This document shows positions 8,083 to 39,988 of a stretch of DNA of 64,000 nt, one piece after another. The DNA lies in NCBI RefSeq assembly GCF_030384885.1, contig NZ_CP128613.1; one strand, written 5' to 3'. The position numbers were made by a program, and so were the translations under genes. The notes beneath the pieces were generated by a model. The model was not told where the DNA came from. It ran no database searches and was given only the letters and a program-made list of their open reading frames with translations. This DNA is from Escherichia coli. GTDB lineage: Bacteria > Pseudomonadota > Gammaproteobacteria > Enterobacterales > Enterobacteriaceae. Position 1 is the first letter of the stretch. Every line of letters starts with the position of its first letter.

Positions 8083-8388
8083 CCTATTACCTAAAGATGA
8101 AAATTATTAGAGCCGCATTAAAAATGAGCTAATTTTGATAGTGGCTATCTTGTGATTATTTTCTAATAAGCCCGTGAACTGAAACCCTCCATGCTTAAAA
8201 TAAGGTGGGGGAATGGTGATTAAAAATCGACCGAAGTCCAGATCTTTATAAAATATGAACAGGTTGAAAAAAGACAGTAACTTTACTGTTTTTTATACTT
8301 AACCATCAATGTTAAGTTATTTCATGATACCTAAGAAAAACCAGCGTTACGCAATTGGTCGACGCTGGTTTTATCCGGTACGTTGCAA

Positions 8389-9441: not shown

Positions 9442-9822
9442 TTTAAACTCCTCAGGTATCCCTGCTAATATCGAAATGTGCATTAATGATAATTTCAGCC
9501 TGTTAATAAAATGACGAGATATCATTAAAGACAAATGCATAGCATAACTATAGCTGGGTTTACTTTGCCGAGTGCCACTTTTCAGCGTTCAAAAGGCCAT
9601 GGTAAATAAATATTTATCCTAAGATTAATTCTTATTCTGTAGTTCTTTACAATTATCTTCCAGGGAGGGATTATTTTTCATTATTGGTAAAAGACCGGAT
9701 AGTCTCGGCGTTTAAAATCAGCGAACATATAATTATTATTGTTTTATATCGTCGTAAATATGTCTTTCAGACATGTATCGTTTATTTTGTAACAAACAAT
9801 TCAAAAATATCATAGGTTATTT

Positions 9823-11430
9823 ATGAAAGCAATTCATAATCTGATTGGAAACAACTCCTTAAGCCATGAATATAAGCATTCAGATAAAGTTAACAATCAT
9901 CAACACCATGGCAAGGTTGATAAAAAACATCTTTCAAAGACAGTTGAAGTTAATATACTGGATAAATTTTCGCAAATAGGTAACAATGCAGGCCTGCATA
10001 TCATCTATTTCCTGCAATATGGTCACTGGAATGTAAATGACTATTTTCATCAGACGGTGAAAACATCGCTTTACAATAGTGAACCTTCTATAGATATCCA
10101 AGAATATAATAGTTTCGCCAACATGGATACTGACACGTTTATCTTTACAATTATACCAGACAATAACCATGTGTTAAAATTATCATCTCCCATAACCGTT
10201 ACGATTGAGCGTAGGGATGGTTATTATTTTATTAATTTCTCCGGAGATAAATCAGATATAATTTATAAAGTTGATGGGCTTTCTATCATATCCGAAAATT
10301 TCTTTACTCTTCTTAGCGGTAATTTTAAACCTGACTGGCGTTGGGATGTCTCTACTGAGAACCTCACTAAGGAAAAGTTTGATAACTATGTTAAATCTGT
10401 GTTCTCAGAAATAGATTTTTATAAACACTGTGGTGTGATTAACCCACAAAATATGAACACGGCTTATTTTGGCGATACAGATGGAAGAGTAGGCGCTATA
10501 CTTTATGCATTGCTCGTTTCAGGGCATATAGGCATCCGGGAAGAGGGGGGGAGTTTAATATGTGAATTATTAAATCACGAAAATATGGCTTCATCTGCAT
10601 ACGAAAAGAAAAAAATGGGAGAGCTCTACGCTTTATTAAATGCAAGAGACATGATCTTGAATGAGTTGCATAATCATGTTTTTTTAAAAGGCGATGCGAT
10701 TACTCCTTGTATTTTCCTTGGAGATCATACAGGCGACAGGTTTAGTACTATTTTTGGAGATCAATATATCCTTACTTTGCTAAATTCTATGCAAAATATG
10801 GAGGGTAATAAAGATAGTCGTATAAATAAAAATGTCGTCGTTCTGGCTGGAAATCATGAAATCAATTTTAATGGTAACTATAGTGCACGACTAGCAAATC
10901 ATAGACTCTCCGCCGGTGATACATATAACTTAATTAAAACGCTTGATGTTTGTAATTATGACCCAGAAAGGAAAGTTTTAACCAGTCATCACGGAATAAT
11001 AAGAAATGAAGAAAGTAAATGTTATTGTCTCGGTGCTTTGCAGGTTCCATTTAAACAGATGAAAAATCCTACTGATCCTGAGGAATTAGCTAATATATTT
11101 AATAAAAAACATAAAGAACATATGGATGATCCTCTATTCCATCTAATCCGAAGCAATATTATGAAACCCACTGCTTTATATACTGATTATTTTAATAACA
11201 CTACTGATTTCAGACCAGCACGTAATCATATCTTCATATGTGGAGAGAAACTCAAATGTGAAGACCCCAGCAAATACATTAGACAAAAATATGGCCATCA
11301 TGGGCTCGGGGTAGATCAGAATCAACAATTTGATAATGGTATTATGGGTCTAAATTCCCGGAAGGAAGTACGTGATAAAAATAATAAAATAATTTATTCA
11401 TCAGGGCTTAGTTGTTTTCAATCTCATTAA
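9823..11430 (+). CDS. yhiL: DUF4049-type protein, paralog of YhiJ (yhiL/yhiK position), intact 535 aa
   Basis: AT-rich ORF sharing motif blocks with the next ORF: YFGDTDGxVGA, FLGDxTGDRFS, VLAGNHE. Confidence 0.7.
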   Translation: MKAIHNLIGNNSLSHEYKHSDKVNNHQHHGKVDKKHLSKTVEVNILDKFSQIGNNAGLHIIYFLQYGHWNVNDYFHQTVKTSLYNSEPSIDIQEYNSFANMDTDTFIFTIIPDNNHVLKLSSPITVTIERRDGYYFINFSGDKSDIIYKVDGLSIISENFFTLLSGNFKPDWRWDVSTENLTKEKFDNYVKSVFSEIDFYKHCGVINPQNMNTAYFGDTDGRVGAILYALLVSGHIGIREEGGSLICELLNHENMASSAYEKKKMGELYALLNARDMILNELHNHVFLKGDAITPCIFLGDHTGDRFSTIFGDQYILTLLNSMQNMEGNKDSRINKNVVVLAGNHEINFNGNYSARLANHRLSAGDTYNLIKTLDVCNYDPERKVLTSHHGIIRNEESKCYCLGALQVPFKQMKNPTDPEELANIFNKKHKEHMDDPLFHLIRSNIMKPTALYTDYFNNTTDFRPARNHIFICGEKLKCEDPSKYIRQKYGHHGLGVDQNQQFDNGIMGLNSRKEVRDKNNKIIYSSGLSCFQSH

Positions 11431-11691
11431 AACTCCATGAATACTGTGGTATGTCTTATTAATCCTGAAAGTATTTCATAGGTTTTCTTAATCGATTGTA
11501 GAGGTATGTTCTGATAACGCCTCTACAATCTCTAGGGATTTTTTCTACTTTGAGATAAGAAATTTCATATTATGCCTTAAGGCTGAATGATTTGTGCAAA
11601 ATATAATTGTTTTTCCATCGAACATGAGGTGTATGTCATAAGATTAAATATTAACTACGTATTCCTCGCGGTGAATAGCATGAGGTAAAAA

Positions 11692-25862: not shown

Positions 25863-26590
25863 AACATCCCTCCGTTGATGGAAATAACCTGGCGGGTGAC
25901 GTAACCCGCAATATCAGACATTAAATAGCTGGCAAGCCCGGCAACTTCTTCCGCCTGGCCCATGCGTTTCATGGGGATCATCGACATTGCCTCTTTCAGA
26001 GCGCTCTCTTCCATTTCGATCATCCCGGTATCAATAAGCCCCGGCGCGATGCAGTTGACGGTGATTTTGCGCTTCGCGAGTTCGATAGCCAGTGCTTTTG
26101 TTGCGCCGATAATTCCGGCTTTGGCAGCGCTGTAGTTCACCTGGCCGCGATTGCCCATTACGCCGGAAACCGAGGACAGCGTGATGATGCGTCCACCCTG
26201 GCGTGCGCCGATCATCGGCATAATGCACGGCTGAATGACGTTGTAGAAACTGTCGAGGTTGGTGTGGATCACCGCATCCCAGTCGTCATCGCTTAAAGCC
26301 GGAAAAGCGGCATCGCGGGCGATCCCGGCGTTACTAACCACGCCGTACCAGGCACCGTGTTGCGCGATCTCGTGCTCCAGCACTTCCCGACACTGTTCGC
26401 GGTTTGCGACGTCGAAACTGAGCAAACGCCCGTTACCACCGTTGGCGACAATGGTATTCAGCGTTTCCTGAGCGCCTGTGGCGTCACGGTGATAGTGAAC
26501 GCCAATATTAAAGCCGTCTGCCGCCAGTTGGCAGGCGATGGCGCGACCAATGCCTTTGCTGGCACCAGTAACCAGAACTGAACGACTCAT
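25859..26590 (-). CDS. 3-oxoacyl-ACP reductase, SDR family (tentatively ApeQ-like)
   Basis: 243 aa; TGASKGIGRAIA cofactor-binding motif and YSAAK catalytic YxxxK. Confidence 0.85.
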   Translation of the reverse strand: MSRSVLVTGASKGIGRAIACQLAADGFNIGVHYHRDATGAQETLNTIVANGGNGRLLSFDVANREQCREVLEHEIAQHGAWYGVVSNAGIARDAAFPALSDDDWDAVIHTNLDSFYNVIQPCIMPMIGARQGGRIITLSSVSGVMGNRGQVNYSAAKAGIIGATKALAIELAKRKITVNCIAPGLIDTGMIEMEESALKEAMSMIPMKRMGQAEEVAGLASYLMSDIAGYVTRQVISINGGML

Positions 26591-27054
26591 CAGGACGCTC
26601 CTTGTTGAAACAGGGTGGTAAGTTCTTCCGCGGTCGGCTGGAAGGTGTTAATGCGGCCCGTTGCCTCGCCGTCGTTGATGCTGCACTCAAAACTACCGAA
26701 GCGTTCATCTTGCATCAGCAGTTTGACGGTAATGGTCAGCGTCTGGCCTGCGGGCAGAATGCCAGCGGCGCAAAGCAATTCACGCGCGCCCAGTACCATC
26801 CCTAACTCAATACTGTTTTTGCCCTGCTGGTGGCGATGCCAGCCAGACCAGACGCCGACGGTTTGCGCCATCAGTTCAAGGGCAAACCAGCCAGGGAGAT
26901 TGCCGTCCGGGTCGAGAAACGGTGCCAGTACACCACTGGGCGAAACCGTCACGCGGCACACGGCGCTGTCATCGCTGACGCTCACCACTTCTTCCAGCAG
27001 CAACATGGGCGCATCGTGGGGCAGATAAGCGCCGGGTGATAAATAGTGGCTCAC
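26590..27054 (-). CDS. hotdog-fold 3-hydroxyacyl-ACP dehydratase-like protein (tentatively ApeP-like)
   Basis: 154-aa ORF, 1-nt overlap with the reductase start; size and position fit a FabA/FabZ-like dehydratase. Confidence 0.65.
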   Translation of the reverse strand: MSHYLSPGAYLPHDAPMLLLEEVVSVSDDSAVCRVTVSPSGVLAPFLDPDGNLPGWFALELMAQTVGVWSGWHRHQQGKNSIELGMVLGARELLCAAGILPAGQTLTITVKLLMQDERFGSFECSINDGEATGRINTFQPTAEELTTLFQQGAS

Positions 27055-28229
27055 GAAACCCTCCCGAGCAGAATGCTGGCGTTATTGCCGCCAAAGGCGA
27101 AGGAATTGGACAGGATCACCGGACGTGCCAGCGGCTGTGGTTTTTCGATAATGCCGCACGGTGGCAGCGTGGGATCGCGTGGCGACAGGCTGAAGTCCTG
27201 AGCGGGCAGCGGTAAATCACGCTGTAAGATCAACATACTGATTGCCGCCTCGGTAATGCCCGCCGCGCCCAGCGTGTGTCCGGTCAAATGTTTGGTGGAG
27301 CTGCACGGTACGCGTTCGCCAAACAGGGCGTTAACCACTATTGATTCAATCTGGTCGTTGAGTTGTGTGGCGGTGCCGTGCAGGTTGATATAGCCGACGT
27401 CATCTGGCGTAAGCTGCGCATCGGTCAGCGCCTGGTTAATAGCGCGGATTGCCCCTTCGCCCTGCGGATGCGGGGCCGAAATATGGTAAGCGTCGCTCGA
27501 TTCACCAACGCCCAGTAACGCGATGGGCTGCGGTTCACGGGTCAGCAGCATTAGCCCCGCGCCTTCGCCAATGGTGATGCCCGCACGGTCACGACCAAAC
27601 GGCTGACATAAGGTTGGCGACAGCGATTCGAGGCTGTGAAAACCGTTAATTGGCATCCGGCTCAGGGTGTCTGCGCCACCCACAATGGCGGCATCGACCA
27701 GCCCCGCTTCGATAAGCCTGCGCCCGCTGATCATCGCTCTGGCGCTGGAAGAGCAGGCGGTTGAAAGAGTATATGCCGGGCCGTCGAGCGCCAGCCAGTG
27801 GCTGAGAAAACGCGACGGATCGCCGAGTTCCTGCTGCGCGTAGTGCCATGTGGTGCTTGGCTGCCCGTGGGTGCGCAGGTTAACGTGCGTGTCGCCTTCA
27901 TGCAGGCCGGAGGTGCTGGTGCCAAGCACAATCGCAATGCGCTCGCGGCCATATTTTGCGATGGCGTCATCAACCTGCGGCTGGATCTGCGCCAGCGCCG
28001 CCAGCAGGATCTGATTGTTGCGCGAGCGGTGCGCAGCGAATTTTTCCGGGATAAGCGGAAGCTCGCCATCCACGCCAGCCAGGACCGCCTGCGGATGCCC
28101 CTGCAACCAGCCTGCGCGTGGGCGCATTCCGGGAGCAACACCGCGAGTCAGGTTGGCTGCGATCTCATCAAGATTATTTCCCAGGGCGTTGATCATGCCA
28201 ACGGCGGAAATATAAATCATATTAGTCAC
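27051..28229 (-). CDS. beta-ketoacyl synthase (tentatively ApeO-like)
   Basis: 392 aa; Cys in STACSSS, His motifs LHGTATQ and TGHTLGAAG. Confidence 0.85.
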   Translation of the reverse strand: MTNMIYISAVGMINALGNNLDEIAANLTRGVAPGMRPRAGWLQGHPQAVLAGVDGELPLIPEKFAAHRSRNNQILLAALAQIQPQVDDAIAKYGRERIAIVLGTSTSGLHEGDTHVNLRTHGQPSTTWHYAQQELGDPSRFLSHWLALDGPAYTLSTACSSSARAMISGRRLIEAGLVDAAIVGGADTLSRMPINGFHSLESLSPTLCQPFGRDRAGITIGEGAGLMLLTREPQPIALLGVGESSDAYHISAPHPQGEGAIRAINQALTDAQLTPDDVGYINLHGTATQLNDQIESIVVNALFGERVPCSSTKHLTGHTLGAAGITEAAISMLILQRDLPLPAQDFSLSPRDPTLPPCGIIEKPQPLARPVILSNSFAFGGNNASILLGRVS

Positions 28230-28806
28230 CTAAGTATTGAATGGTGATGTGGTATTTAAAGACATGCTGCTCAATGCTGATTGGCACGCGTTTTCCTTTG
28301 CGATTCAAATAAGTGATTTCCGTGACCAGTTTGCCACTGGCGTTACGCAGTTCGCGTTTGTCACCGTTGTCGCGAAGCGTCCATCCAGCGGGGAGTTGCG
28401 GTTGCCAGGCGCTAATCGGCCAGTGGCTGAGCATCACGTCAGCCAGCACCTGACTTGCTGGCGGCAATTGTGGGACGACGATGGATTGCTCGGCGCGTAG
28501 CCCTTGCGCATCGTAGGTCACCAGAAACAGACGAATGCCGACTGATGACAGTCCGGCAAGGGTGATTTTCTGGTCGTCGGCATTAAGCATCACCAACAGC
28601 GACTGGGTTTTGCCGTTGAAGCTTCCGGTCAACAGTTGCTGGGAATTGACGGCGGGCGATATCCCCGGCGCAGGCAGCGTGATGCGTGTGCCAGGTTGCA
28701 GCCACGCCTGCGGGCGTCCTTCCTGTTCCGGTTGCGAGTGGCTACAGCCGGTGAGGATAAGCGTAGCGGTCAGGGCGAATGCCCGCCAAAAGGTGGGTTT
28801 GATCAT
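28222..28806 (-). CDS. lipoprotein, DUF3261-like (tentatively ApeN-like)
   Basis: 194 aa with signal peptide and lipobox LILTGCSHS. Confidence 0.7.
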   Translation of the reverse strand: MIKPTFWRAFALTATLILTGCSHSQPEQEGRPQAWLQPGTRITLPAPGISPAVNSQQLLTGSFNGKTQSLLVMLNADDQKITLAGLSSVGIRLFLVTYDAQGLRAEQSIVVPQLPPASQVLADVMLSHWPISAWQPQLPAGWTLRDNGDKRELRNASGKLVTEITYLNRKGKRVPISIEQHVFKYHITIQYLGD

Positions 28807-31118
28807 TTTTTTGTTCTCTTTTTATCGGGCATAGCCAGCGGCGAAAGCAGGAAGGCGGTGAAAATACCGCTCACCAGCACAATGCCAAAACTGCTGATGG
28901 CCTGAGTGGCGCTGAATACCAGCATTCCCAGCGTCAGCAAGGTGGTGAGCATTGCCAGCGTGATCGCCAGTAGGGAAGTTAACGGTGTACCGCGCGAATT
29001 ACTGAAAAACAGCGTGTAGTTGATGCCGATGCCAAGCACCAGCACCAGCGCCAGCAGCGAAAAGAGATTCACCGCCTGCCCGCTCATCGCCAGCACTGCC
29101 AGACCGCAGCCCAGCGAAAGCACCGAAGGCACCAGGCTGATAAGCCCTTTGCGCCAGCCGAGGCGGGCCACTGCGCCGCAGGCAATCACTGCCAGCGCCA
29201 CCAGCAACAAACCGGTTAAGACGTGGCGGTAAAGTGCGAACAATTCATCAAAAGTGTTTTTGCGATCAACCCAGGCAATGCCCTGGTAATAGCTGGCTGT
29301 TTCCTGCAACAACGCGCTACTTTTAACCCCTTCAACCGGCACCAGTACGCCGCTTGCGCCGTTTTCCAGCGTCAGCCACAGCAGACGCCAGCCTTCACTG
29401 GCGGGGCTTGCCAGCCATTCATCGACCTTCACTGGCATGGCGTTGAGATCTGGTTTCAGCGCCGTCAGTCCGGCATTTTGCAGCGCTTTTGTTACCGTCG
29501 GGGCAGCCGTTTTCAGCAGATGTAAATCTTCCTCCTGCCGCGCCAGGGAGTTCAGCGGAATAGTGCGGTAGTTGCTGATAAGACGGTCTTTTTTCGCTTT
29601 CTCCAGCGAGGTGGTAAATTTCTCCAGCCGCCGCAATGTTTGCTGTGGCGAATCGCCGTAAACCACAAACCATTTTTGATCGACGCTTTGTCCGGTCAGG
29701 GCGGTAATGGCTTTTTCCTGCGCCAGAATATGCTGCGGCAGCGCCTGTAACTGCGAGATATCGTCATCGACGCGCAGCATTGACATCCCCGCCAGCGAAA
29801 ACAGCGCCAGCGCGACGGGCAGACCCCGCGACAGTTTTTTATTGCGCCGCCACGCCGCCAGCCAGCGCAGCATCAACGCCATCGCCGGAACCGGACGCAC
29901 CGGCAGGCCACGGCACAGCCACGGATGCCAGAACAGAACGGTCAGACAGGAGGCGCTCAACCCGACGGCGGCAAAAATCGCCATCTGGCGAATGCCGGGG
30001 AAGGGGGCGAGCATCATAATCAGATACGCCGCCACGGTGGTGAGCAGCGCCAGTAGCAAGGCATTGCGCACTTTCACCAGGCTTTGCCACGGCGAAACGT
30101 CATTGCCGTGCACCATCCGCTCGGTAAGGTAATAGAGCGTGTAGTCAGCGGAAATGCCGATAACGCTCATGCTCATCACCAGCGTCATCAGGTGTAATTC
30201 ACCGAAAATCAACAAGGTGGCGACCGTTCCCGCCAGCGCGCCAATGCCGATGGAAATCACGCAAAGCAGCAACGGGCGTAAAGAGCGGAACACCGCCACA
30301 ATCAGTAATATCACCCCCAGCAGCGTTGCCACGCCCAGGGTTGAGATATCCTGCTTCGCCTGTTGACTGGCGTAATCGCTGTAAAACACCGTGCCGCGCG
30401 AGAGCAACTGCGCCTGCGGATAACGCGTTTTCAGATCCTTTTCCAGTGTATTCAGGGTGGTGATCAGCTGGTGGGTTTGCTGCATATCAAACGACGATCC
30501 CGCCAGTTCGCCGTGCAGCAGATACCAGTAGTTGCCCTGGGGATCCTGTGTCACCAGCCAGCCGTCCATCAGCCGCAAACGCTGGCCATTTTTCGCCATC
30601 GCCAGCTGCGAGCCGCGCATTAACATCAGCGGATCATTTTGCAGCTCCTTACCGCTTACCCCGGAGAACGCAGAATAAAGCTGGGAGAGGATCCACTGCG
30701 CCTGCGCTTCGCCGCCGTTTTGCAGGCGCGTGCGGGTGTCGGGGTCAATCAGGCCGTTACGATGCTGCCAGAAAAACGCTCCCCACGCTTGCTGGCTGGC
30801 GGCATCCATTGGCCCTTTAACGTCGCCGAGCGCAGCGGATTTTTGCAGCAGCGTCAGCCATTCCTGAGCCACACTGGGATTAGCCTCTTTACCGGGGCTG
30901 ACCAGCCACACCAGTTGGCGGTCCAGACGCTGCATAAAGCCGTCATTCAGCGCCGGGGGAATATCGCCCATCGCCTGTTTGGGTAACATAGCCAGCACGC
31001 TACTGTTCAGTCGTGATTGCGGCAGCAGGATCAGCAACGCCGCCGCCATGACCAGGCAGATGATCACCCATAACAGCGCCGGGCGTTTACTGGGCGGCAA
31101 AACGTTGGCGTTCGTCAT
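28803..31118 (-). CDS. MMPL/RND-superfamily membrane exporter (tentatively ApeM-like)
   Basis: 771 aa with two blocks of TM helices separated by large soluble domains. Confidence 0.8.
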   Translation of the reverse strand: MTNANVLPPSKRPALLWVIICLVMAAALLILLPQSRLNSSVLAMLPKQAMGDIPPALNDGFMQRLDRQLVWLVSPGKEANPSVAQEWLTLLQKSAALGDVKGPMDAASQQAWGAFFWQHRNGLIDPDTRTRLQNGGEAQAQWILSQLYSAFSGVSGKELQNDPLMLMRGSQLAMAKNGQRLRLMDGWLVTQDPQGNYWYLLHGELAGSSFDMQQTHQLITTLNTLEKDLKTRYPQAQLLSRGTVFYSDYASQQAKQDISTLGVATLLGVILLIVAVFRSLRPLLLCVISIGIGALAGTVATLLIFGELHLMTLVMSMSVIGISADYTLYYLTERMVHGNDVSPWQSLVKVRNALLLALLTTVAAYLIMMLAPFPGIRQMAIFAAVGLSASCLTVLFWHPWLCRGLPVRPVPAMALMLRWLAAWRRNKKLSRGLPVALALFSLAGMSMLRVDDDISQLQALPQHILAQEKAITALTGQSVDQKWFVVYGDSPQQTLRRLEKFTTSLEKAKKDRLISNYRTIPLNSLARQEEDLHLLKTAAPTVTKALQNAGLTALKPDLNAMPVKVDEWLASPASEGWRLLWLTLENGASGVLVPVEGVKSSALLQETASYYQGIAWVDRKNTFDELFALYRHVLTGLLLVALAVIACGAVARLGWRKGLISLVPSVLSLGCGLAVLAMSGQAVNLFSLLALVLVLGIGINYTLFFSNSRGTPLTSLLAITLAMLTTLLTLGMLVFSATQAISSFGIVLVSGIFTAFLLSPLAMPDKKRTKK

Positions 31119-31692
31119 CGGTCAGTTGCGCTGGCGTCAGTTGATGTTGGGTAAGAGCGATATCGGTGCGATCGTCCTGTTTATCATTAAGCTGAATGCT
31201 CTCCAGATAGGTTTGCCCGGCGAGATCGATGGTATTGAAAATTTTATCCAGCGGCGTGGTGGTCGGCGTCAGGCGCAGCGTCCAGCGGCCTTCGCCTTTG
31301 TCAGCAAATTCGACGCGGAAGTTTTGTTCCAGCACTTTGCGATCGGCCTGGAACAGCGCGCGCAGCAGGTGGTTAAACTGGAACATCTGCGGGTTATTTT
31401 CTGCCGTGATGATTTGTGGCGGCTGACCGTTGATCACCTGCACCATGCGTTTATCGTCCAGCAATAGCTGCATGGGAAATGGTGAGGTTTGATCCCACAA
31501 TAACCCCTGGTCGCGGGCGATCAACATCTGGCCCTGAGATCGCAGCGGCTGCGGCAGATCTTTAATCGTCCGGGTTTGATCAAAATGGGCGCGGATCACC
31601 GGCTGTTCGGTAAAGCGTTGCTGAAGATCGTCCAGGGTCAGGGCGCTCACAAACGGGCTAATCAGCAGCGCCAGCAGCGGTAAAAATTTCAT
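31087..31692 (-). CDS. LolA-like periplasmic lipoprotein-carrier protein (tentatively ApeL-like)
   Basis: 201 aa with signal peptide MKFLPLLALLISPFVSA; start overlaps the upstream stop (ATGA). Confidence 0.65.
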   Translation of the reverse strand: MKFLPLLALLISPFVSALTLDDLQQRFTEQPVIRAHFDQTRTIKDLPQPLRSQGQMLIARDQGLLWDQTSPFPMQLLLDDKRMVQVINGQPPQIITAENNPQMFQFNHLLRALFQADRKVLEQNFRVEFADKGEGRWTLRLTPTTTPLDKIFNTIDLAGQTYLESIQLNDKQDDRTDIALTQHQLTPAQLTDDERQRFAAQ

Positions 31693-32111
31693 GGTTTGAC
31701 TCCCATGCGTTCAAACAGAATATCGGGGCTGACAAAGCACAGTTCGCGGCTTTGCTCGTCGACCGCGACCTGAATGGTGTATCCGGTGGTGGCGCGTTTG
31801 CCCGTTTCGGCATCGAAAATCTGATAGCCAATTCGCAGGCGGTTTTCGAACTCTTCGATATGCGCACGCACGCGGATGCGTTGCTCAAAGGTGAGGGCGT
31901 GGCGATATTTCACCCGCGCATCGACCACTGGCCACAAATAACCCGACTCTTTCATCTGCCGATAGCCGTAATTGAACTGGTTGAGCAGCGCCTCGCGGGC
32001 CACTTCAAAGTAGCGAAAATAGTTACCGTGCCAGGCCACGCCCATCATATCGACGTCGTGAAATGGAATGATCAGCTCGACTTCAGCGGTAAATCGGGGA
32101 TCGTTAAGCAC
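31689..32111 (-). CDS. hotdog-fold acyl thioesterase, 4HBT/YbgC-like (tentatively ApeK-like)
   Basis: 140 aa; PFHDVDMMGVAWHGNYFRYFE resembles the 4HBT active-site region. Confidence 0.75.
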   Translation of the reverse strand: MLNDPRFTAEVELIIPFHDVDMMGVAWHGNYFRYFEVAREALLNQFNYGYRQMKESGYLWPVVDARVKYRHALTFEQRIRVRAHIEEFENRLRIGYQIFDAETGKRATTGYTIQVAVDEQSRELCFVSPDILFERMGVKP

Positions 32112-32114
32112 CCT

Positions 32115-33791
32115 TTACTCCTTGTCCTGGACTTCCGGCAGTTGCCAGAAATCGAAAAAATTAAACCAGTCGAGGGGCGACTGGAGCGCGTGATGTTCCA
32201 GACGCGCGGCGTAATGATCGATAGCGTTTTGCAGCGCCTGCTGGCGTTCGCCACGCGGCAACAGCAGCGGGTCGGCAAAGGTTTCGCAGTGAATATGCAG
32301 CTTGCCGTGCTGGCGCAGGGCGAAAATCAGATTCACCGGGCAGCGCAAAATAGAGGCGAGAATAAACGGCCCCTGTGGGAAGGGCGCAGGCTGGCCCATA
32401 AACGGACTCCAGCAGACGCGCCAGTCGCCGCCGCGTTGCGGGTTGATGGCGATGCGGTCAGCAACAATCGCCACCCATTCGCCGTTATCCAGCTTCTCTT
32501 TTAGCAGGATGGCGGTGTCCGGGCCGATATCCGTCACCGGGAGCAGGTTGATGCCTGCCTGCGGGGCCATCTCCTGCATTATCTGTTTAAAACGTTGGGC
32601 GTTTTCGCTAAACACCAGCGCGTTAATGGTTTTGTAGCCCTGAATTTTTGCCAGCGCCCGGCACACTTCCACATCGCCAAGATGCGAGGCCAGCAGCAAT
32701 TTGCCGCGCGGATCGCTGACGTTAAGTGCCGCTTCTGCGCCTGGTGCAAACAGCACATCACGCCCGAGTTGCAGCTCGCCGCGCCAACTGGCGATTTTGT
32801 CGAGCATGGCGTTGCCGAAACGTAGAAAGTGCTGATAGCTGTTGAGTTTTGCTGCCTGTGGTTGATGCTGGCGCACACGGGCGAGCCAGTCTTGCGACGC
32901 TTTGCGCGCCCGGCTGGCGGTGAGCCAGTAGACGCCCACCACCGGGTAAAGCAGCGCGGTAAACGCCGTTCTTCCCAGCAGGCGCCAGACCAGCAGCATC
33001 AGGCGCATTCCCCATAATCCTTTCACTTCGCTCTGCCGCGCCCAGTGGCTGGAAGAGTGGCGCATCAGCAGCGAAGGAATACGCGGCAACATGCCGAAAA
33101 ACAGGCGCGTGTGCATGAGCGAGATGCGGACGTTATCTTTCAGGGCATCAAAGTGCGAAAGCCCGTCCAGCGGATAGGTGACGCGAGTCGGCACGAAATA
33201 GCTGGTGTTTCCCTGCCAGTAGAGGCGCACCATCACTTCGGTGTCGAAATCCATCCGCTTGCCGATGGTGGCGTGTTTTGCCAGTTGCAGCGTTGGCGCA
33301 ACCGGATAAACGCGAAAGCCGCACATGCTGTCTTTCAGTTGCAGGGAGAGCGTTTCGATCCACACCCAGACGTGGGTGACCCAGCGCCCGTACAGCCGTG
33401 AGCGGGGGATGGAGTCATCGTAAATTGGCTGGCCGGAGATCAGTGCCGCAGGGTGTTGTTCAGCGAGTGCCAGCAGTTTGGGGATATCTTCAATCGCGTG
33501 CTGACCGTCGGCATCCACCTGTACCGCATGGCTGAACCCCGCGTCTGCCGCTGCCTGTAAGCCGCGCATTACCGCCGCGCCTTTGCCTGCGTTTTCTGCC
33601 AGGCGAATTAATGTCACGCCAGGCTGTTCGGCAACCAGATTATCCAGTTGCTGTTGCGTGGCGGCATCGCTGCCGTCATCCACCACAATACAGGGCAGAT
33701 TAAATGGCTTAAGACGCGCCAGCACGCCCGGCATCATTGCGCCGTGGTTGTAGCAGGGGATCAACACGCAGGGAGAAAAGTTTACCGACAT
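32115..33791 (-). CDS. fused family-2 glycosyltransferase / lipid-A-type acyltransferase (tentatively ApeJ-like)
   Basis: 558 aa; N-terminal VVDDGSD and QVDADGQH GT2 motifs; C-terminal half assigned by family recollection. Confidence 0.7.
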   Translation of the reverse strand: MSVNFSPCVLIPCYNHGAMMPGVLARLKPFNLPCIVVDDGSDAATQQQLDNLVAEQPGVTLIRLAENAGKGAAVMRGLQAAADAGFSHAVQVDADGQHAIEDIPKLLALAEQHPAALISGQPIYDDSIPRSRLYGRWVTHVWVWIETLSLQLKDSMCGFRVYPVAPTLQLAKHATIGKRMDFDTEVMVRLYWQGNTSYFVPTRVTYPLDGLSHFDALKDNVRISLMHTRLFFGMLPRIPSLLMRHSSSHWARQSEVKGLWGMRLMLLVWRLLGRTAFTALLYPVVGVYWLTASRARKASQDWLARVRQHQPQAAKLNSYQHFLRFGNAMLDKIASWRGELQLGRDVLFAPGAEAALNVSDPRGKLLLASHLGDVEVCRALAKIQGYKTINALVFSENAQRFKQIMQEMAPQAGINLLPVTDIGPDTAILLKEKLDNGEWVAIVADRIAINPQRGGDWRVCWSPFMGQPAPFPQGPFILASILRCPVNLIFALRQHGKLHIHCETFADPLLLPRGERQQALQNAIDHYAARLEHHALQSPLDWFNFFDFWQLPEVQDKE

Positions 33792-34165
33792 AGGCGGATC
33801 TTCCCGCTACTGGCGGTGTGGCGGGCGTCACCGTCGTGACGCTGATAACTAAAGCTCAGAATCTGGCGTTCTTCCTGCCAGCTAAGCGTGAGTGTGACGC
33901 GGTTATCCGGCAGCAATGGAGCCTGGAATTTGATGTTCTGAATGGAGTGAAAACGCCAACCGGGCGCGAGCAGGGCAAGCGCGTAACTCATCGCCCAGTC
34001 GATTTGTGCCACGCCGGGGAGTAATGGTTGTACGGCAAAATGACCGCGAAACCAGAACAGATCTGCCCTGAGATGCAAAACAATCTCAAGGTGATTCACT
34101 TGTGCCTGATGGCGCTCGATTTCATGGGGCTTCATGAAATAACTCCTGTAATTGCGCATAGACAC
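33782..34165 (-). CDS. hotdog-fold dehydratase (tentatively ApeI-like)
   Basis: 127 aa with FabZ-like GHFxxxPxxPGV-type motif (RGHFAVQPLLPGV). Confidence 0.65.
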   Translation of the reverse strand: MSMRNYRSYFMKPHEIERHQAQVNHLEIVLHLRADLFWFRGHFAVQPLLPGVAQIDWAMSYALALLAPGWRFHSIQNIKFQAPLLPDNRVTLTLSWQEERQILSFSYQRHDGDARHTASSGKIRLCR

Positions 34166-35483
34166 GCTTGTTCATACTGTTTACTGGCATTTCATCAATA
34201 ACGCGCCAGTAACGCGGAATAGCAACTGGCTCCAGCGTCGGGCGCAGTAATCGCCGCCAGGCCATTTCCTGGCTGTGCCCGCCGCCGTTTTGCCATTGCA
34301 GGCGAGCTTCGTCATCCAGCACCAGCAAAACGCCAATACTCTGACGCCCGCCGCGCGTAACGGGAACTGCCGCCGCCTCGTGAATACCGTCCAGCGCCAG
34401 CAGACGTTGTTCTACTTCCTGGAGTGAAATGCGTTTTTCTTCAATCTTAACGATGCGTCCGCGACGCCCCATCAGATGGAACTGGCCGTCTTCGCTAAAC
34501 TGCAAGATATCGTCGAGTAACAGGCCGCTATCTTCCTCCATCAGAGGTGAAAAGAGACGAAAGGCATCATCTTCGGCCTGGAACTGCATACCTGGAAAGG
34601 GCCGCCAGCGGCGTTGCTCTTGTTCGCGGTAACGCCAGGCGATGACGCCGGTTTCCGTGCTGCCGTAGATTTCATCAGGCCAGACGCGCAGCCAGCTCGC
34701 GGTGTGTTGTACGTCCTGCCACGGTAGTTCACCGCCAGCGGACAGAAGCACCTGAACGGGGGGCGGGGATAGCTGAGCATCCAGACGCTTCAAAAATGCC
34801 GGGCTGCTGATGAAGATATAGCGATGCTGATGACTCAACGCGGCAAACTGTTCGACATACCAGAGCATGGCGGCATGGAGCGGTAATCCCAGCGCCATGG
34901 GCAGGAAAACGCGAAAAGTCAGGCCGTACAAATGCTGCGGCAATACGGAACCGATGACACGACATCCGGCAAGACGTGCGCCTAATCGTTCAGCCAGCAG
35001 TTCTGCTTCACGGTCCAACAAACGAACAGGTTTAATCACCCGCTTCGGCTGCCCTGTGGAACCAGAGGTAAACAGCTCGATATAAGCGTCTGGCGCTATA
35101 GCGGCAAAGGTGAATGATTGTGTCGCGACTTGTGGGGAGCTTGCTACCAACTGCAATGAACCTTGGCAGTTAAGTTCGCTGTCGCTAAGCACACCATCGA
35201 ACAGTTCACGTTGCTCGTTAAGCTGGATGACGCGGTTATGCCCCGGAAGCACCGGTGTTTTTCCGGCGTGTAGCGTGGCGAGCAGGGCAACGATAAACAG
35301 ATAGCAGTCCTCAAAGCACAGCGCCCAGCGTTCACCTGGTTGTTGCTGTAAACGGCAGATAAGTTGCGAGACATCGTGACGCAAATCGCCCAGCGTCCAG
35401 GTGCTTTCGTCCAGCCACGCAATGGGCGTGTCATCAGAGCGTGGCGCAGTCAGCCAGCGTGCAAGCGGTAAGGTCTGCTTCAT
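34122..35483 (-). CDS. AMP-dependent synthetase/ligase (tentatively ApeH-like)
   Basis: AMP-binding motif LFTSGSTGQPKRV; start set at ATG 35483, overlapping the upstream stop (ATGA); ORF-track start 35522 is an alternative. Confidence 0.75.
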   Translation of the reverse strand: MKQTLPLARWLTAPRSDDTPIAWLDESTWTLGDLRHDVSQLICRLQQQPGERWALCFEDCYLFIVALLATLHAGKTPVLPGHNRVIQLNEQRELFDGVLSDSELNCQGSLQLVASSPQVATQSFTFAAIAPDAYIELFTSGSTGQPKRVIKPVRLLDREAELLAERLGARLAGCRVIGSVLPQHLYGLTFRVFLPMALGLPLHAAMLWYVEQFAALSHQHRYIFISSPAFLKRLDAQLSPPPVQVLLSAGGELPWQDVQHTASWLRVWPDEIYGSTETGVIAWRYREQEQRRWRPFPGMQFQAEDDAFRLFSPLMEEDSGLLLDDILQFSEDGQFHLMGRRGRIVKIEEKRISLQEVEQRLLALDGIHEAAAVPVTRGGRQSIGVLLVLDDEARLQWQNGGGHSQEMAWRRLLRPTLEPVAIPRYWRVIDEMPVNSMNKRVYAQLQELFHEAP

Positions 35484-36061
35484 GAGCGATCTCTTTTCAT
35501 CACCTGACGGCGCACCAGCCATTCACCAGCCATTAACGTCCCCATCAACAAATAAGCAATCATGCCGTTCCAGGCAGTCCATAACGACATATCGCCATGC
35601 AGCGCGGTAAAGAGGGCAATTCCGCCGTTGATGATGAAAAAGCCGCACCAGATTTGCGTGACGTGGCGGGTATAGCGCACGCCCTTTTCCGGGAGGTCTG
35701 GCTCCTGCAAACGCGCCAGCCGCTCAACAATTGGCATTGCCGACCACAGCGAACCGCCAAAAACCGCCAGCATTACCGCGTTAACCACTACCGGGTAAAA
35801 CAGCAGTAGCTGGTGCGTTTTCAACAGAAAGCTGGCAACACACAAGGCGATACCCACAACAGCGACGATTTGTGTGACGGCTTGTAGCGGCCCGGCCTGG
35901 CAACGAGTCTGGCGCAGGCGCAATAAAAGCAGCAGCGCCATCAGCGGCAACAGCCAGTGCAGGCCGTTATGTGCCAAACCAAGCCAAATCACAAACGGCC
36001 AGGCGAGCAGCAATAATCCAGTCAGCAGTTTAATAATCGGTAGCGAGCGAATGCCCGACAT
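35480..36061 (-). CDS. integral membrane protein of unknown function (tentatively ApeG-like)
   Basis: 193 aa with about 5 predicted TM helices; in-operon position. Confidence 0.6.
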   Translation of the reverse strand: MSGIRSLPIIKLLTGLLLLAWPFVIWLGLAHNGLHWLLPLMALLLLLRLRQTRCQAGPLQAVTQIVAVVGIALCVASFLLKTHQLLLFYPVVVNAVMLAVFGGSLWSAMPIVERLARLQEPDLPEKGVRYTRHVTQIWCGFFIINGGIALFTALHGDMSLWTAWNGMIAYLLMGTLMAGEWLVRRQVMKRDRS

Positions 36062-36065
36062 CAGA

Positions 36066-36317
36066 TCAGGCTTCTTGTAGCAGGCGTTCTACGGCCTCTA
36101 CGACATCCCGGACTGTACGCACTGCTTTAAACTCTTCCGGCTTGATTTTCTTACCGGTTTTCTTTTGCAGATGCACAATCATGTCAACGGCGTCGATGCT
36201 GTCCAGTTCCAGATCTTCGTACAGGCGCGCTTCAGGTTTGATGTCCTGCGGTTCGATTTCAAACAGCTTAACCAGCAGAGCTGAGACTTCCTGATAGACG
36301 GTTTGTTGTTCTGTCAT
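36066..36317 (-). CDS. acyl carrier protein
   Basis: 83 aa, acidic, with phosphopantetheine attachment motif DLELDSIDAVD. Confidence 0.85.
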   Translation of the reverse strand: MTEQQTVYQEVSALLVKLFEIEPQDIKPEARLYEDLELDSIDAVDMIVHLQKKTGKKIKPEEFKAVRTVRDVVEAVERLLQEA

Positions 36318-36328
36318 GATGGCTTTCC

Positions 36329-36586
36329 TCAGGCACGTTGTGCAGCAATAAAAGAGGCCAGAGTGGCGACAGAGAAAAAGTGCTGACGCATCTCTTCACT
36401 TTCCGCAGAAAGTACAACGCCATATTCATTTTTCACTGCCAGCCCCAGTTCCAGGGCATCGATAGAGTCCAGCCCTAAACCGTCGCCAAACAGTGGCGCG
36501 TCGGTATCGATATCATCAGGAGCCAACTCGTCCAGATTGAGGGTGCTGATGATGAGATTTTTAATTTCCAGATAAAGCGCTTGCAT
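36329..36586 (-). CDS. acyl carrier protein (second, tandem)
   Basis: 85 aa with attachment motif LGLDSIDALE. Confidence 0.85.
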   Translation of the reverse strand: MQALYLEIKNLIISTLNLDELAPDDIDTDAPLFGDGLGLDSIDALELGLAVKNEYGVVLSAESEEMRQHFFSVATLASFIAAQRA

Positions 36587-37382
36587 TATTTATTCCTGAG
36601 AGAGGTAAACAACCTTGTTGTAATTGAAGCAAAAGATGCCGGTTTAACTGCCTTGCTGCTAGCGCCGGTTCTTGTGAAGTTGCATCGTAAAATTTATTGA
36701 TTTCTACCCGCCCACGGACTTCAACCGTAAAAAGTGGCCTGGCAGGTGGAACGTCATACCATTTACTTTGTTTATCCAGCAGATGCTCGCTACAGCCGAT
36801 CGTCACGATGCGTAAATCGCTGGCGCAGCGCACGGCAATATTCGCCGCACCGCGCTGTAACGTCATTTTTTCACCAGGCTTCGTCCGCGTGCCTTCGGGG
36901 AAAATCAAGATAGTGTCGCCCTGTGCCAGTCGCTGTTGGCAACGGGGTAAGAGAGTTTCAGCTTCGCTGTTGATTAAATAATCTGCCGCCCGCACGACGC
37001 CGCCAAGAAAAGGATTTTTTAACAGCGCGCTTTTTACCAGGCAGTCAGTTTCTGGCATGACTGATGCCAGTAGTACGTAATCGATAAGCGTGGGATGATT
37101 AGCTACGACGAGGCAACCGCGTTCCTGACGTAAAATTTCAGCCCCATCAATACGATAATCCAGCACGCCAAGCCCTTTTGCGACTGTTAAAAACAGACGA
37201 AAACTGGCGGCAATGCTGCGACGCGCCAAACGACGGCGGCGGGAAGTGTTCCACACCAAAACTAACAGTACGTTAAACCACACCACAGAGAGTAGTAGTC
37301 CGCCGAGGCCAAACAGGGCAAAACACAACCCGGTCATAACCAGTCGCCATGTCCATTCCAGGCGTGACATCAGCTTACTCAT
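36561..37382 (-). CDS. PlsC-family lysophospholipid acyltransferase (tentatively ApeD-like)
   Basis: 273 aa; N-terminal TM helix, NHPTLID (HxxxxD) and FPEGTR motifs. Confidence 0.75.
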   Translation of the reverse strand: MSKLMSRLEWTWRLVMTGLCFALFGLGGLLLSVVWFNVLLVLVWNTSRRRRLARRSIAASFRLFLTVAKGLGVLDYRIDGAEILRQERGCLVVANHPTLIDYVLLASVMPETDCLVKSALLKNPFLGGVVRAADYLINSEAETLLPRCQQRLAQGDTILIFPEGTRTKPGEKMTLQRGAANIAVRCASDLRIVTIGCSEHLLDKQSKWYDVPPARPLFTVEVRGRVEINKFYDATSQEPALAARQLNRHLLLQLQQGCLPLSGINNASALSGN

Positions 37383-38125
37383 CTACGGCTCCAGCGCCAC
37401 TGTACGCGCTCACCAGGAAGTGAAAAAGCATCTGAATTTTGTAAATAGTGCTGTAAAAACAACATGCTTTGCGGCAGTGTTGTTTCATTGCCCGCAATGG
37501 CTGGCTGTGTTTCACATTGCCACTCATCGCCAGCTTCAATCACCAGCGCAACAGCATATGGCCAGGTCGGCATTTCTGCTGGGAGCTGCGGATGATAGAA
37601 CTCAGGTAGAAAGCCATCAAAATCGACCATCAACACACGCTGGTATCCCGCTTGTAGCAGGCTAAGCACTTCACTCAAACCTTGCTGGAAAGTGTCGCGA
37701 CCAGCCGAAAGCGATGACGAAACGATCGGCTGTTTGGCCGCAATGGTCAGGTTACCCACGGAAGAGTTGTGTACTGAAAGTGCAAAGTCGGTGGGGGAAA
37801 GCGCCTGTTCAGTTGCCAGTGCATGAACAATGCGGTAATTGCGCTCCAGTTCGCCATGACGACTGGTATACAAAACGGCGTCTGGCTGATGGCGGCGTAG
37901 CATTGCCAGGCCGCATTCAACAGCCAGTTTGCTGCCTGAACTGAGGCGGCGGGCGGTCATCATTGGCAGTTCACTTAATTTTGCCAACGGCGCGGCAGGG
38001 TCAATCGCCCACGGCTGGCGCGACCATGCTTGCCATTGCTGCGCTTCGCTAAGTCCAGGCGCCAGTGCCTGCCAGTCGGTAATATTTAATGTAAATTTCA
38101 TCAACGCGCGCCCGCGGTAAACCAA
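37379..38125 (-). CDS. ketosynthase-like protein without the recognisable catalytic triad; chain-length-factor-like partner (tentatively ApeC-like)
   Basis: 248 aa, start overlaps downstream-gene stop; no Cys/His KS motifs found by eye; alternative start at ATG 38101. Confidence 0.55.
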   Translation of the reverse strand: MVYRGRALMKFTLNITDWQALAPGLSEAQQWQAWSRQPWAIDPAAPLAKLSELPMMTARRLSSGSKLAVECGLAMLRRHQPDAVLYTSRHGELERNYRIVHALATEQALSPTDFALSVHNSSVGNLTIAAKQPIVSSSLSAGRDTFQQGLSEVLSLLQAGYQRVLMVDFDGFLPEFYHPQLPAEMPTWPYAVALVIEAGDEWQCETQPAIAGNETTLPQSMLFLQHYLQNSDAFSLPGERVQWRWSRR

Positions 38126-38141
38126 AATTATTAAGTGACGA

Positions 38142-39209
38142 TTATTTCTTTTGGCATATCAAAAGAGTATGCCCAACGCCTAAATTATCGTGGCGCTCTG
38201 CTACCTGAAATCCTGCTTTATTCAGATAGTCGTAAAATTTCTCTGCACTATAGAAACGGCTGTTACCGTTTGCCATGCAGGTGAAATAAAGTGAGGACGC
38301 GTTCAGGCTAAATGATGCTGCTTCAAACCGCTGCGCATCCCAGAACAACTCCATGATGCAAACTTTTGCGCCAGGCTTCATTACGCTGGCGATTTTGCTG
38401 AGTATGCTAATTATTTGTTCGGGTGAAAAACAGTCTAAAAATTGGCTCATCCACCAGATATCAGCCTCGCCCGGTAATGGGGCATCGCTTAGCATATCCA
38501 CCGCATGGAAATCTATGCGATCAGAAAAACCTGCATTCGCGATATTTTCTTTCGCTAGTACGATTTGTTGTGGCAGATCTAATAACGTCACGGCGATGTT
38601 TTCATTGTATTTGCAGCAACGCAAAGCCCACTTACCCGTATTGCCGCCTACATCGTACAATGTTGTGGGGTTGTTGGCGAATACATAAGGCAGTGCGGCG
38701 TTAAATGCGCCATCTGAATAGTAATGATCAAACGCAAACCAGCTTTCACGAGCGGCATCTGGTAATTGTGAAAGTGCGGGATATATCGTCGACCAGTCGC
38801 CAAATACTTTTAACCCGGACGGTTTTCCTTCATTGAGTGAATCGGCGAGGAAGAAGAGCCCCTGATAGCAGACATCCTGGGTGAAATCCATATTCACGCG
38901 AGTCATAGTGTCATGCAGGAGGTAATGACCGATTTTCGCCAGGTAATACATTCCCTCTTTACAGGTAATAATTCGCCCGCTTAAGCCCATATCTAACAGA
39001 ACGCTGGCCGCATATTCGTTGATATGGCTATGTTCGGTGATATCAGCCAGCGTTGCGCCATGTTTGCCTTGCCGATCCAGATATGAAAGTACACCCGCAT
39101 TACGTAGGCAGAGAGCTGTTTGAAAAAGCATGGGGGCAAAGGCAATGCGTTGAGCTTCGGTAATCGCATCCAGTGCGCTAAGAGAATCCTGTTCGTACAT
39201 GTTGGGCAC
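38142..39209 (-). CDS. class I SAM-dependent (O-)methyltransferase (tentatively ApeB-like)
   Basis: 355 aa; glycine-rich SAM-binding motif VGGNTGKWA. Confidence 0.75.
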   Translation of the reverse strand: MPNMYEQDSLSALDAITEAQRIAFAPMLFQTALCLRNAGVLSYLDRQGKHGATLADITEHSHINEYAASVLLDMGLSGRIITCKEGMYYLAKIGHYLLHDTMTRVNMDFTQDVCYQGLFFLADSLNEGKPSGLKVFGDWSTIYPALSQLPDAARESWFAFDHYYSDGAFNAALPYVFANNPTTLYDVGGNTGKWALRCCKYNENIAVTLLDLPQQIVLAKENIANAGFSDRIDFHAVDMLSDAPLPGEADIWWMSQFLDCFSPEQIISILSKIASVMKPGAKVCIMELFWDAQRFEAASFSLNASSLYFTCMANGNSRFYSAEKFYDYLNKAGFQVAERHDNLGVGHTLLICQKK

Positions 39210-39268
39210 AACCTGTTAAGAGGGAATTAAATTATTATCGGACCGAAGCGGCCCGACTTTAGGGGAAA

Positions 39269-39658
39269 TTACAAATCTGCGCCAGCCGACAAATTCAGTT
39301 GAATATCTTTGTCGAGATTGCGGACCCAGCGATTATAGTTTTTATGAATTTGTCCGCCTGATGCTTGCAGGTTCTGACTATTTTCATAATTGATATCGTA
39401 GCTGGATGCCGTGTAGTTAATGCGAATTTCGGCTGAATGATCGCGTGACTGTTGACGTGCTTTAATTACGCCTTGTCCGGCTTCGGACATAATCCATTTG
39501 CGTTCAACGCCAGCTTTCAGAATCGCTTTTTTCACTTGTTCCGGGGTATGACCAGCGCTGACGGTTGAGTGAACCTGATCAATTGGCGCAGTACGCGCGC
39601 AACCCGCTAAAGCACCCACAACAGCAATAGCCGCAAACCATTTCATGTAATGTCTCAT
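39269..39658 (-). CDS. small lipoprotein, first gene of the cluster transcription unit
   Basis: 129 aa; signal peptide with lipobox LAGC; lower GC than the downstream genes. Confidence 0.55.
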   Translation of the reverse strand: MRHYMKWFAAIAVVGALAGCARTAPIDQVHSTVSAGHTPEQVKKAILKAGVERKWIMSEAGQGVIKARQQSRDHSAEIRINYTASSYDINYENSQNLQASGGQIHKNYNRWVRNLDKDIQLNLSAGADL

Positions 39659-39988
39659 TAGAATCCCATTAAAGTATTGTTTTTACGAGTAAAGCAAGAT
39701 TTAACTGTAATTGCTGGCATCACTATTCTTTATTTAGCGAAAAAATTACTTGTGAGATAAGTCAGTAAGTGCACATCAGAGTAAAAATTTCTGAAATGAC
39801 TAAATTACTGCCAGCGGGGACCAACTATAAGTGAGTGAGAAAAATGAGGCAATAAAAATAACAGATTGTTATCAGTGCATTCTTTGAGAGGGATTTAATC
39901 GCTATTCGGCGTTTATATATATTTGACTTAAGGAATGGTTTTTATAAATTAATTGTCTGAATAATGTTTCTTCATTTCCTCAAATCAA
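39659..39988 (-). promoter_or_regulatory. AT-rich putative promoter/regulatory region of the biosynthetic cluster
   Basis: About 330 bp non-coding, very AT-rich (TTTATATATATTTGACTTAAGG), between the yhhT terminator and the first cluster gene. Confidence 0.4.

Follow-up and report, generated by a model that had tools for sequence, protein, structure and literature searches.

Aryl polyene (APE) gene clusters rank with the most widely distributed biosynthetic clusters of bacteria, and APE pigments have been connected with protection against oxidative stress and with biofilm formation in uropathogenic Escherichia coli. The product of the ketosynthase (KS) ApeO and its partner ApeC is a yellow aryl-polyene membrane pigment. 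Heterodimers of their orthologues have been crystallised from Xenorhabdus (6QSP) and Acinetobacter baumannii (7F28; PMC8358021). In this pseudo-two-fold heterodimer, part of the cavity wall is formed by ApeC, which has no cavity of its own, and the cavity depth sets the chain length (PMC8358021, PMC9006962). Heterologous expression of the APE cluster of E. coli CFT073 gives pigment, which disappears in most deletions of core genes (Johnston et al. 2021, PMC8253772); the same authors remarked on the distance of apeC from the other core genes. Here, we describe an APE cluster in a 64,000-nucleotide stretch of E. coli DNA (contig NZ_CP128613.1 of assembly GCF_030384885.1; hereafter, the window), in which two open reading frames (ORFs), at 27051–28229 and 37379–38125, encode orthologues of ApeO and ApeC. 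An earlier note on this DNA, based on short motifs, had proposed that the two form a ketosynthase/chain length factor (CLF) pair, as in type II polyketide synthases (PKSs).

The ORF at 27051–28229 (minus strand) comprised 392 aa, but its mechanically assigned start was too long. Starts were corrected for both apeO and apeC from the RefSeq annotation and from the positions at which alignments to the 6QSP orthologues begin, giving an ATG at 28220 and a protein of 389 aa for apeO. Both ketoacyl-synthase Pfam domains were detected in the 392-aa ORF (PF00109, 2.4e-21; PF02801, 4.4e-27), together with four motifs identical to those in 6qsp_A (TAC159SSS, H284GTAT, GH318TLGAAG and FAFGG, in the numbering of the 392-aa ORF). 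The catalytic triad is thus Cys156/His281/His315 in the 389-aa protein. Among all PDB sequences, the top match was 6qsp_A (E 2e-175, 68% identity), followed by 7f28_B (3e-82); the nearest non-Ape structures were FabF enzymes (best 1e-48). The protein scored 556.7 bits against NCBIfam NF006618 (cutoff 407) and shared only 29% identity with the other complete ketosynthase of the window, ApeR, and neither of the two reached the cutoffs of the curated NCBIfam equivalogs for fabF and FabB. Downstream of the gene lie apeP, apeQ and apeR, in the same order as in CFT073. Judged from its sequence, the 389-aa protein is an orthologue of ApeO.

The second ORF, at 37379–38125 (minus strand, 248 aa), was corrected to an ATG at 38101 and a protein of 240 aa. 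This protein matched PF13723 (Ketoacyl-synt_2) at 1.7e-66 over profile positions 1–223 of 223, and its top match among all PDB sequences was 6qsp_B (E 4e-92, 60% identity), with 7f28_A second. RefSeq names the product "beta-ketoacyl synthase chain length factor", and no NCBIfam model matched it. On these matches, it is assigned as the orthologue of ApeC. The family comprised 2,077 representatives when clustered at 50% identity, and residue conservation in the family was read from an alignment of 53 full-length members (236–253 aa), made up of the E. coli protein and 52 homologues 29%–85% identical to it. The AlphaFold2 model built from this alignment had a predicted local distance difference test (pLDDT) score of 94.4 and a predicted template modelling (TM) score of 0.91. 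In a Foldseek search against the PDB, it superposed on 6qsp_B with TM scores of 0.95/0.96 and a root-mean-square deviation of 1.3 Å. Further matches included A. baumannii ApeC (AbApeC), the ishigamide CLF Iga12, FabF enzymes, the actinorhodin CLF and AntE. The model therefore places ApeC in the KS/thiolase fold, of which it is predicted to contain only about half.

None of the ketosynthase motifs was found in the 248-aa ORF, which contains two Cys residues in total. The two catalytic His residues of a ketosynthase lie in its C-terminal thiolase half, and ApeC is too short to include that half. No Cys was conserved across the 53 aligned family members, and the only conserved His residues were H82 (85%) and H111 (100%). 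In a low-confidence profile alignment (E 0.07), Cys156 of ApeO aligned with position 135 of ApeC, which is R135 in E. coli. This column was variable across the family (A/R/K/E/V/S) and follows a conserved Ser-Ala-Gly, and the alignment agreed with the predicted strand–helix order of the ApeC model. The replacement of the catalytic Cys by Asn112, based on the resemblance of SVHNSS to TACSSS, was considered as another candidate and rejected, given that the profile alignment and the strand–helix order place the Cys equivalent at position 135. The helix carrying VHNxxxG precedes the "SAG" strand and, by comparison with FabF, is probably the equivalent of the preceding ketosynthase helix.

The best matches of the two proteins, 6qsp_A and 6qsp_B, both with E-values far beyond chance, are the two chains of one Xenorhabdus ApeO:ApeC crystal. 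We therefore consider it highly probable (ca. 95%) that ApeO and ApeC are the ketosynthase and CLF subunits of an APE synthase, which is a highly reducing type II PKS of an unusual kind, and the orthology makes a physical interaction between the E. coli proteins near-certain. Orthology, fold, the presence or absence of catalytic residues, the intact cluster and the conserved gene order were observed directly. The earlier note fared well. It had described the first ORF as a full ketosynthase and had seen the Cys/His/His triad in it, in agreement with PF00109, PF02801 and the motifs shared with 6qsp_A, and the second as KS-like, without a triad and 9 kb away, which was borne out by the PF13723 match, the lack of ketosynthase motifs and the measured distance. 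The profile search and structure prediction that it had suggested for the small protein returned a KS/thiolase fold and not the absence of one. Its pairing of the two as in type II PKSs likewise agrees with the orthologous complexes 6QSP and 7F28, with the qualification that ApeC is half-size and non-canonical.

Several points weigh against this reading. ApeC and ApeO showed no sequence link in a BLASTP comparison (E 0.27), in an hhalign comparison of the ApeC family profile with the ApeO sequence (E 0.13) or in one of the ApeC profile with a six-sequence ketosynthase profile (E 0.07). Because sequence comparison alone could not connect ApeC to ApeO, the KS-like assignment of ApeC rests on Pfam clan membership and structure. 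The interaction of the E. coli pair is itself inferred from orthologues that are 60%–68% identical. For apeO, the work on CFT073 yielded no clean scarred deletion (Johnston et al. 2021, PMC8253772). Finally, sources disagree on how ApeO:ApeC and ApeR share the work. ApeR is described as "required for initiation" in Xenorhabdus in vitro work (Grammbitter et al. 2019, as cited by later authors). The Acinetobacter protein makes short polyenes and more than doubles throughput, and ApeO–ApeC alone reaches full length (PMC8358021, PMC9006962). In E. coli, ApeR is largely dispensable for pigment.

The two genes belong to an 18-gene APE cluster, with all ape genes intact on a single (minus) strand between acpT and yhhT. 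Positions 24000–39700 of the window were 100% identical to positions 3884817–3900517 of E. coli strain 2013C-4282 (NZ_CP027579.1). Nineteen minus-strand genes follow one another head to tail from 39646 down to 24044, many with stop and start codons overlapping by 1 or 4 nt. Besides apeO, apeC and apeR, the genes agreed with the published ApeA–R list on the basis of Pfam matches and Table 1 of PMC8253772, and the dedicated ApeP-like and ApeI-like dehydratase models of Pfam both matched the expected ape neighbours. In the order of transcription, the genes are as follows.

39269–39646, minus strand: apeA, small lipoprotein and first gene of the cluster (RefSeq hypothetical protein; PMC8253772 Table 1)
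38142–39200, minus strand: apeB, S-adenosylmethionine-dependent O-methyltransferase (PF00891)
37379–38101, minus strand: apeC, putative chain length factor, KS-like, half-size and catalytically silent, 240 aa (PF13723, RefSeq)
36561–37382, minus strand: apeD, lysophospholipid acyltransferase; its first 4 nt overlap the end of apeC (PF01553)
36329–36586, minus strand: apeE, acyl carrier protein (ACP) 1 (PF00550, NF006617)
36066–36317, minus strand: apeF, acyl carrier protein 2 (PF00550, NF003757)
35480–36061, minus strand: apeG, membrane protein, conserved in cluster position; no match in Pfam or NCBIfam
34122–35483, minus strand: apeH, adenylating enzyme, 4-hydroxybenzoate onto ACP (PF00501; function from the literature)
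33782–34135, minus strand: apeI, dehydratase (PF22818 ApeI-like, 1.4e-39)
32115–33791, minus strand: apeJ, glycosyltransferase/acyltransferase (PF00535, RefSeq)
31689–32111, minus strand: apeK, thioesterase (PF13279)
31087–31692, minus strand: apeL, LolA-like carrier (PF03548, PF19574)
28803–31118, minus strand: apeM, MMPL/RND-type exporter (PF03176, RefSeq)
28222–28806, minus strand: apeN, DUF3261 LolB-like lipoprotein (PF11659, 2.6e-39; PMC8253772 Table 1)
27051–28220, minus strand: apeO, predicted active beta-ketoacyl-ACP synthase (KS-alpha equivalent), 389 aa (PF00109, PF02801, RefSeq CDS)
26590–27054, minus strand: apeP, dehydratase (PF22817 ApeP-like, 4.3e-40)
25859–26590, minus strand: apeQ, 3-ketoacyl-ACP reductase (FabG2) (PF13561, PF00106, RefSeq)
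24633–25862, minus strand: apeR, second, predicted homodimeric ketosynthase, 409 aa (PF00109, PF02801, NF006587)
24044–24631, minus strand: acpT, 4'-phosphopantetheinyl transferase, 1 bp downstream of apeR (PF01648, RefSeq)

For the assembly of the heterodimer, the control of chain length and the course of the pathway, the orthologues and the published work suggest the following. ApeH would adenylate 4-hydroxybenzoate and transfer it to one of the two ACPs, ApeE or ApeF, which the neighbouring phosphopantetheinyl transferase (PPTase) would activate. AcpT is the probable activator of ApeE and ApeF, and in vitro it activates their O157:H7 homologues (PMC8253772). ApeO, using Cys156/His281/His315, would carry out repeated decarboxylative Claisen condensations with malonyl-ACP, and in each round the ketoreductase ApeQ and the dehydratases ApeI and ApeP would convert the product into a conjugated double bond. 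ApeC, with the first thiolase half and no nucleophile, would stand in for the second protomer of a ketosynthase dimer and wall off the substrate cavity of ApeO on one side, with the polyene length set by the cavity depth; its conserved Arg-Arg patch may serve ACP docking. ApeR, as a separate homodimeric ketosynthase, would supply short early intermediates and raise throughput. The other genes would account for methylation of the product, release, lipid attachment and export to the outer membrane.

The stop codon of apeC and the start codon of apeO are separated by 9,158 bp, with apeC upstream on the same minus strand and apeD to apeN in between. Gene order was examined in five distant relatives with usable contig context (42%, 35%, 31%, 30% and 29% identity); the contigs of two more were too short to show neighbouring genes. 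In all five, apeC headed an apeC–acyltransferase–ACP–ACP–...–AMP-ligase–ApeI block, and in none of these loci did a ketosynthase gene adjoin apeC. In the relatives with 42% and 35% identity, whose contigs extend far enough, a two-domain ketosynthase of 392–393 aa was encoded 9–10 kb downstream of apeC. Because this arrangement has been kept across distant relatives, the separation of apeC from the ketosynthase gene is both ancient and stable in this family.

Some APE-like loci differed in content. One of the five relatives, on a 78.9-kb contig from JGI metagenome 3300072015, had apeC–apeD–ACP–ACP–apeH–apeI followed by unrelated genes, with no ketosynthase gene within 10 kb; since the block ends after apeI, the cluster is split there and the ketosynthase partner is encoded elsewhere. 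Two distant APE-like clusters contained an internal aromatic ammonia-lyase gene (PF00221; L005, 15284–16837, and L010, 16311–17873), and another distant locus (L006, 19214–20455) contained a gene for a halogenase-like flavoenzyme. These genes suggest aryl starter units or head-group tailoring other than those of the E. coli type.

The ApeC family was invariant at R51, R52, S102, P103, F106, V110, H111 and N112 (n = 53), and T104, which completes an SPT motif, was present in 44 of the 53 sequences. The codons for Arg51-Arg52 occupy positions 37946–37951 of the window and those for His111-Asn112 positions 37766–37771. R51, R52 and SPT aligned with Arg30, Arg31 and Thr83 of AbApeC, which are conserved surface residues, and both Arg residues have been proposed to take part in ACP docking (Lee et al. 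2021, PMC8358021). The literature describes ApeC as acting in ACP docking through the Arg-Arg pair and in the control of cavity depth only (PMC8358021, PMC9006962), and gives no role for the invariant His-Asn pair. The invariance of His111-Asn112 in all 53 sequences and the linkage of the gene to apeD, which it overlaps by 4 nt, and to two ACP genes, and not to apeO, in every relative examined leave room for a second role of ApeC. That ApeC is more than a passive cavity plug is nevertheless a speculative idea that we consider improbable; such a role could be to catalyse or gate malonyl-ACP decarboxylation or to hand over the finished chain from the ACP to the lipid-attachment enzymes.

The 409-aa ORF at 24633–25862 encodes a complete ketosynthase with the triad C165, H302 and H336. 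Its top PDB matches were 4ewg_A (E 1.4e-165) and 7f27_A (E 4e-159), and it scored 779 bits against the NCBIfam equivalog NF006587 (cutoff 470). Both 4EWG (Paraburkholderia) and 7F27 (Acinetobacter; PMC8358021) are ApeR homodimers. By these matches the 409-aa protein is identified as an orthologue of ApeR, a putative homodimeric ketosynthase acting in initiation and early elongation. The earlier note had called it a FabB-like, separate elongation ketosynthase. As a separate elongation ketosynthase it is fairly described; its hidden Markov model (HMM) scores lay slightly nearer to FabF than to FabB, although the literature on ApeR also uses the term FabB-like. Given that both ketosynthases are encoded in the same operon-like cluster and that neither gene lies next to apeC, the silent 240-aa protein might be thought to partner ApeR instead of the 389-aa ApeO. 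We regard this as very unlikely, as the ApeR orthologues crystallise as homodimers and the partner of ApeC in both solved complexes is the ApeO orthologue (6qsp_A and 7f28_B, the top matches of the 389-aa protein and not of the 409-aa one). Moreover, deletion of apeR in E. coli leaves the pigment in place, whereas most core-gene deletions lose it.

An equally slim chance attaches to the view that the cluster is a fatty acid synthase paralogue producing an unusual lipid instead of an aryl polyene, in which case the analogy with a CLF would not apply. Its generic annotations (FabG2, beta-ketoacyl-ACP synthase and acyl carrier protein) would suit such a pathway, as would the FabF enzymes that are the closest structures to ApeO outside the Ape proteins. 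However, ApeO, ApeC and ApeR are 95%–99% identical to their counterparts in the CFT073 cluster, which yields APE pigment on heterologous expression. The ApeI-like and ApeP-like Pfam matches and the dedicated AMP-ligase also argue against it, as does the lack of an enoyl reductase gene among the cluster genes, as judged from Pfam matches and the RefSeq annotation. Least probable of all is that the 240-aa ORF is a functionless, decayed ketosynthase remnant beside an ordinary ApeO homodimer, a notion that its half length, missing catalytic motifs and lack of an NCBIfam match might invite, but that is contradicted by the 2,077 clusters and the narrow length range of the family with its invariant RR, SPxxF and VHN, by the head position in the apeC–apeD–ACP–ACP block kept down to 29%–31% identity, by a confident, well-folded model with the fold of a protein crystallised in complex, and by the functional heterocomplex described in published work. 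The assignment of ApeO and ApeC as the two subunits of an APE synthase is preferred.

Among 5,426 complete E. coli genomes, apeC was present in 824 and always chromosomal, and 820 had 80% or more of the complete 15.7-kb cluster; given these nearly equal counts, apeC and apeO co-occur. The cluster occupies two chromosomal sites in this species. One is the acpT–yhhT interval seen here; the rest of the window is ordinary chromosome of this species, with prlC, usp, pitA and nikABCDER to one side of the cluster and yhhT, zntA, ftsYEX, rpoH, liv and ugp to the other. The second site, in CFT073 and GABEEC10, is a genomic island with an integrase and insertion sequence remnants, away from acpT and, in GABEEC10, next to cdiBA. 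Most E. coli apeC copies showed 90%–95% nucleotide identity, compared with 98% for the best whole-cluster matches. This higher divergence suggests a mosaic or recombinant history or a looser constraint on apeC. Elsewhere in the window, positions 8001–14000 had a low guanine–cytosine content (0.35–0.42, against ca. 0.55 elsewhere), and this stretch holds yhiM and two tandem DUF4049 genes (ca. 9823–11430 and 11692–13314, plus strand).

The nature of the ApeO/ApeC pair is already known from the structures of two orthologous complexes, from reconstitution in vitro, from genetic work in E. coli and from the product name in RefSeq. The pair exemplifies, in textbook fashion, the "uncommon type II PKS" behind aryl-polyene pigments. 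What has been gained is that an inference from motifs proved correct and that the right gene starts and names are now attached to it, with little import beyond annotation. Because the cluster adjoins acpT, the gene for its probable activating PPTase, this copy could provide a convenient native context for study.

Compared with described systems, ApeO and ApeR share with FabF and FabB the fold, the Cys-His-His triad and ACP-bound substrates; FabF and FabB, however, are homodimers without a silent partner, unlike ApeO:ApeC. Canonical type II PKS pairs (actinorhodin, 1TQY; AntD–AntE, 6SMP; Iga11–Iga12, 6KXF) likewise combine an active ketosynthase with a partner lacking the nucleophile, and this CLF likewise closes the substrate cavity and sets the chain length. 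In these systems, the KS-alpha and KS-beta genes are adjacent and translationally coupled, and KS-beta has Gln at the position of the active-site Cys. The ApeC model has a fold related to canonical CLFs (Foldseek E 6e-8 to 2e-5). It is nevertheless half their size (240 aa versus 350–400 aa) and lacks the full-length double thiolase fold; its target-normalised TM score was only 0.39 to 1tqy_B and 0.46–0.52 to Iga12. Unlike canonical KS-beta genes, apeC overlaps apeD, with the ketosynthase gene 9 kb off. In the ApeC family, the column that the low-confidence alignment (E 0.07) sets against the nucleophile is variable, and a conserved Gln or Cys is probably absent there. The products also differ, the APE being a fully reduced and dehydrated polyene and the canonical product a poly-beta-ketone. 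ApeC falls outside the canonical KS-beta type of type II PKSs, being half-size and encoded away from its partner.

Closer likeness was found to other APE systems. A. baumannii has the same two-ketosynthase system, with ApeO–ApeC (7F28) and ApeR (7F27; PMC8358021), and RR, SPT and VHN are kept in AbApeC, although that protein has 204 aa, with about 20 N-terminal residues fewer, and is only ca. 25% identical to E. coli ApeC. The cluster of CFT073 (c1186–c1204; PMC8253772), from the same species, shares all 18 genes and their order but lies at a different chromosomal location; identity to CFT073 was 99% for ApeO (c1189), 98% for ApeR (c1186) and 95% for ApeC (c1202), the most diverged of the three. 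The cluster of Xenorhabdus doucetiae, as reported by Grammbitter et al. (2019; cited in PMC8253772 and PMC8358021), also has this 18-gene content and order. It belongs to another host, and the E. coli cluster differs in its acpT-adjacent chromosomal site. The E. coli orthologues are nonetheless 68% and 60% identical to the ApeO and ApeC of 6QSP, with the same motifs and the same 240-aa ApeC made of a single thiolase half.

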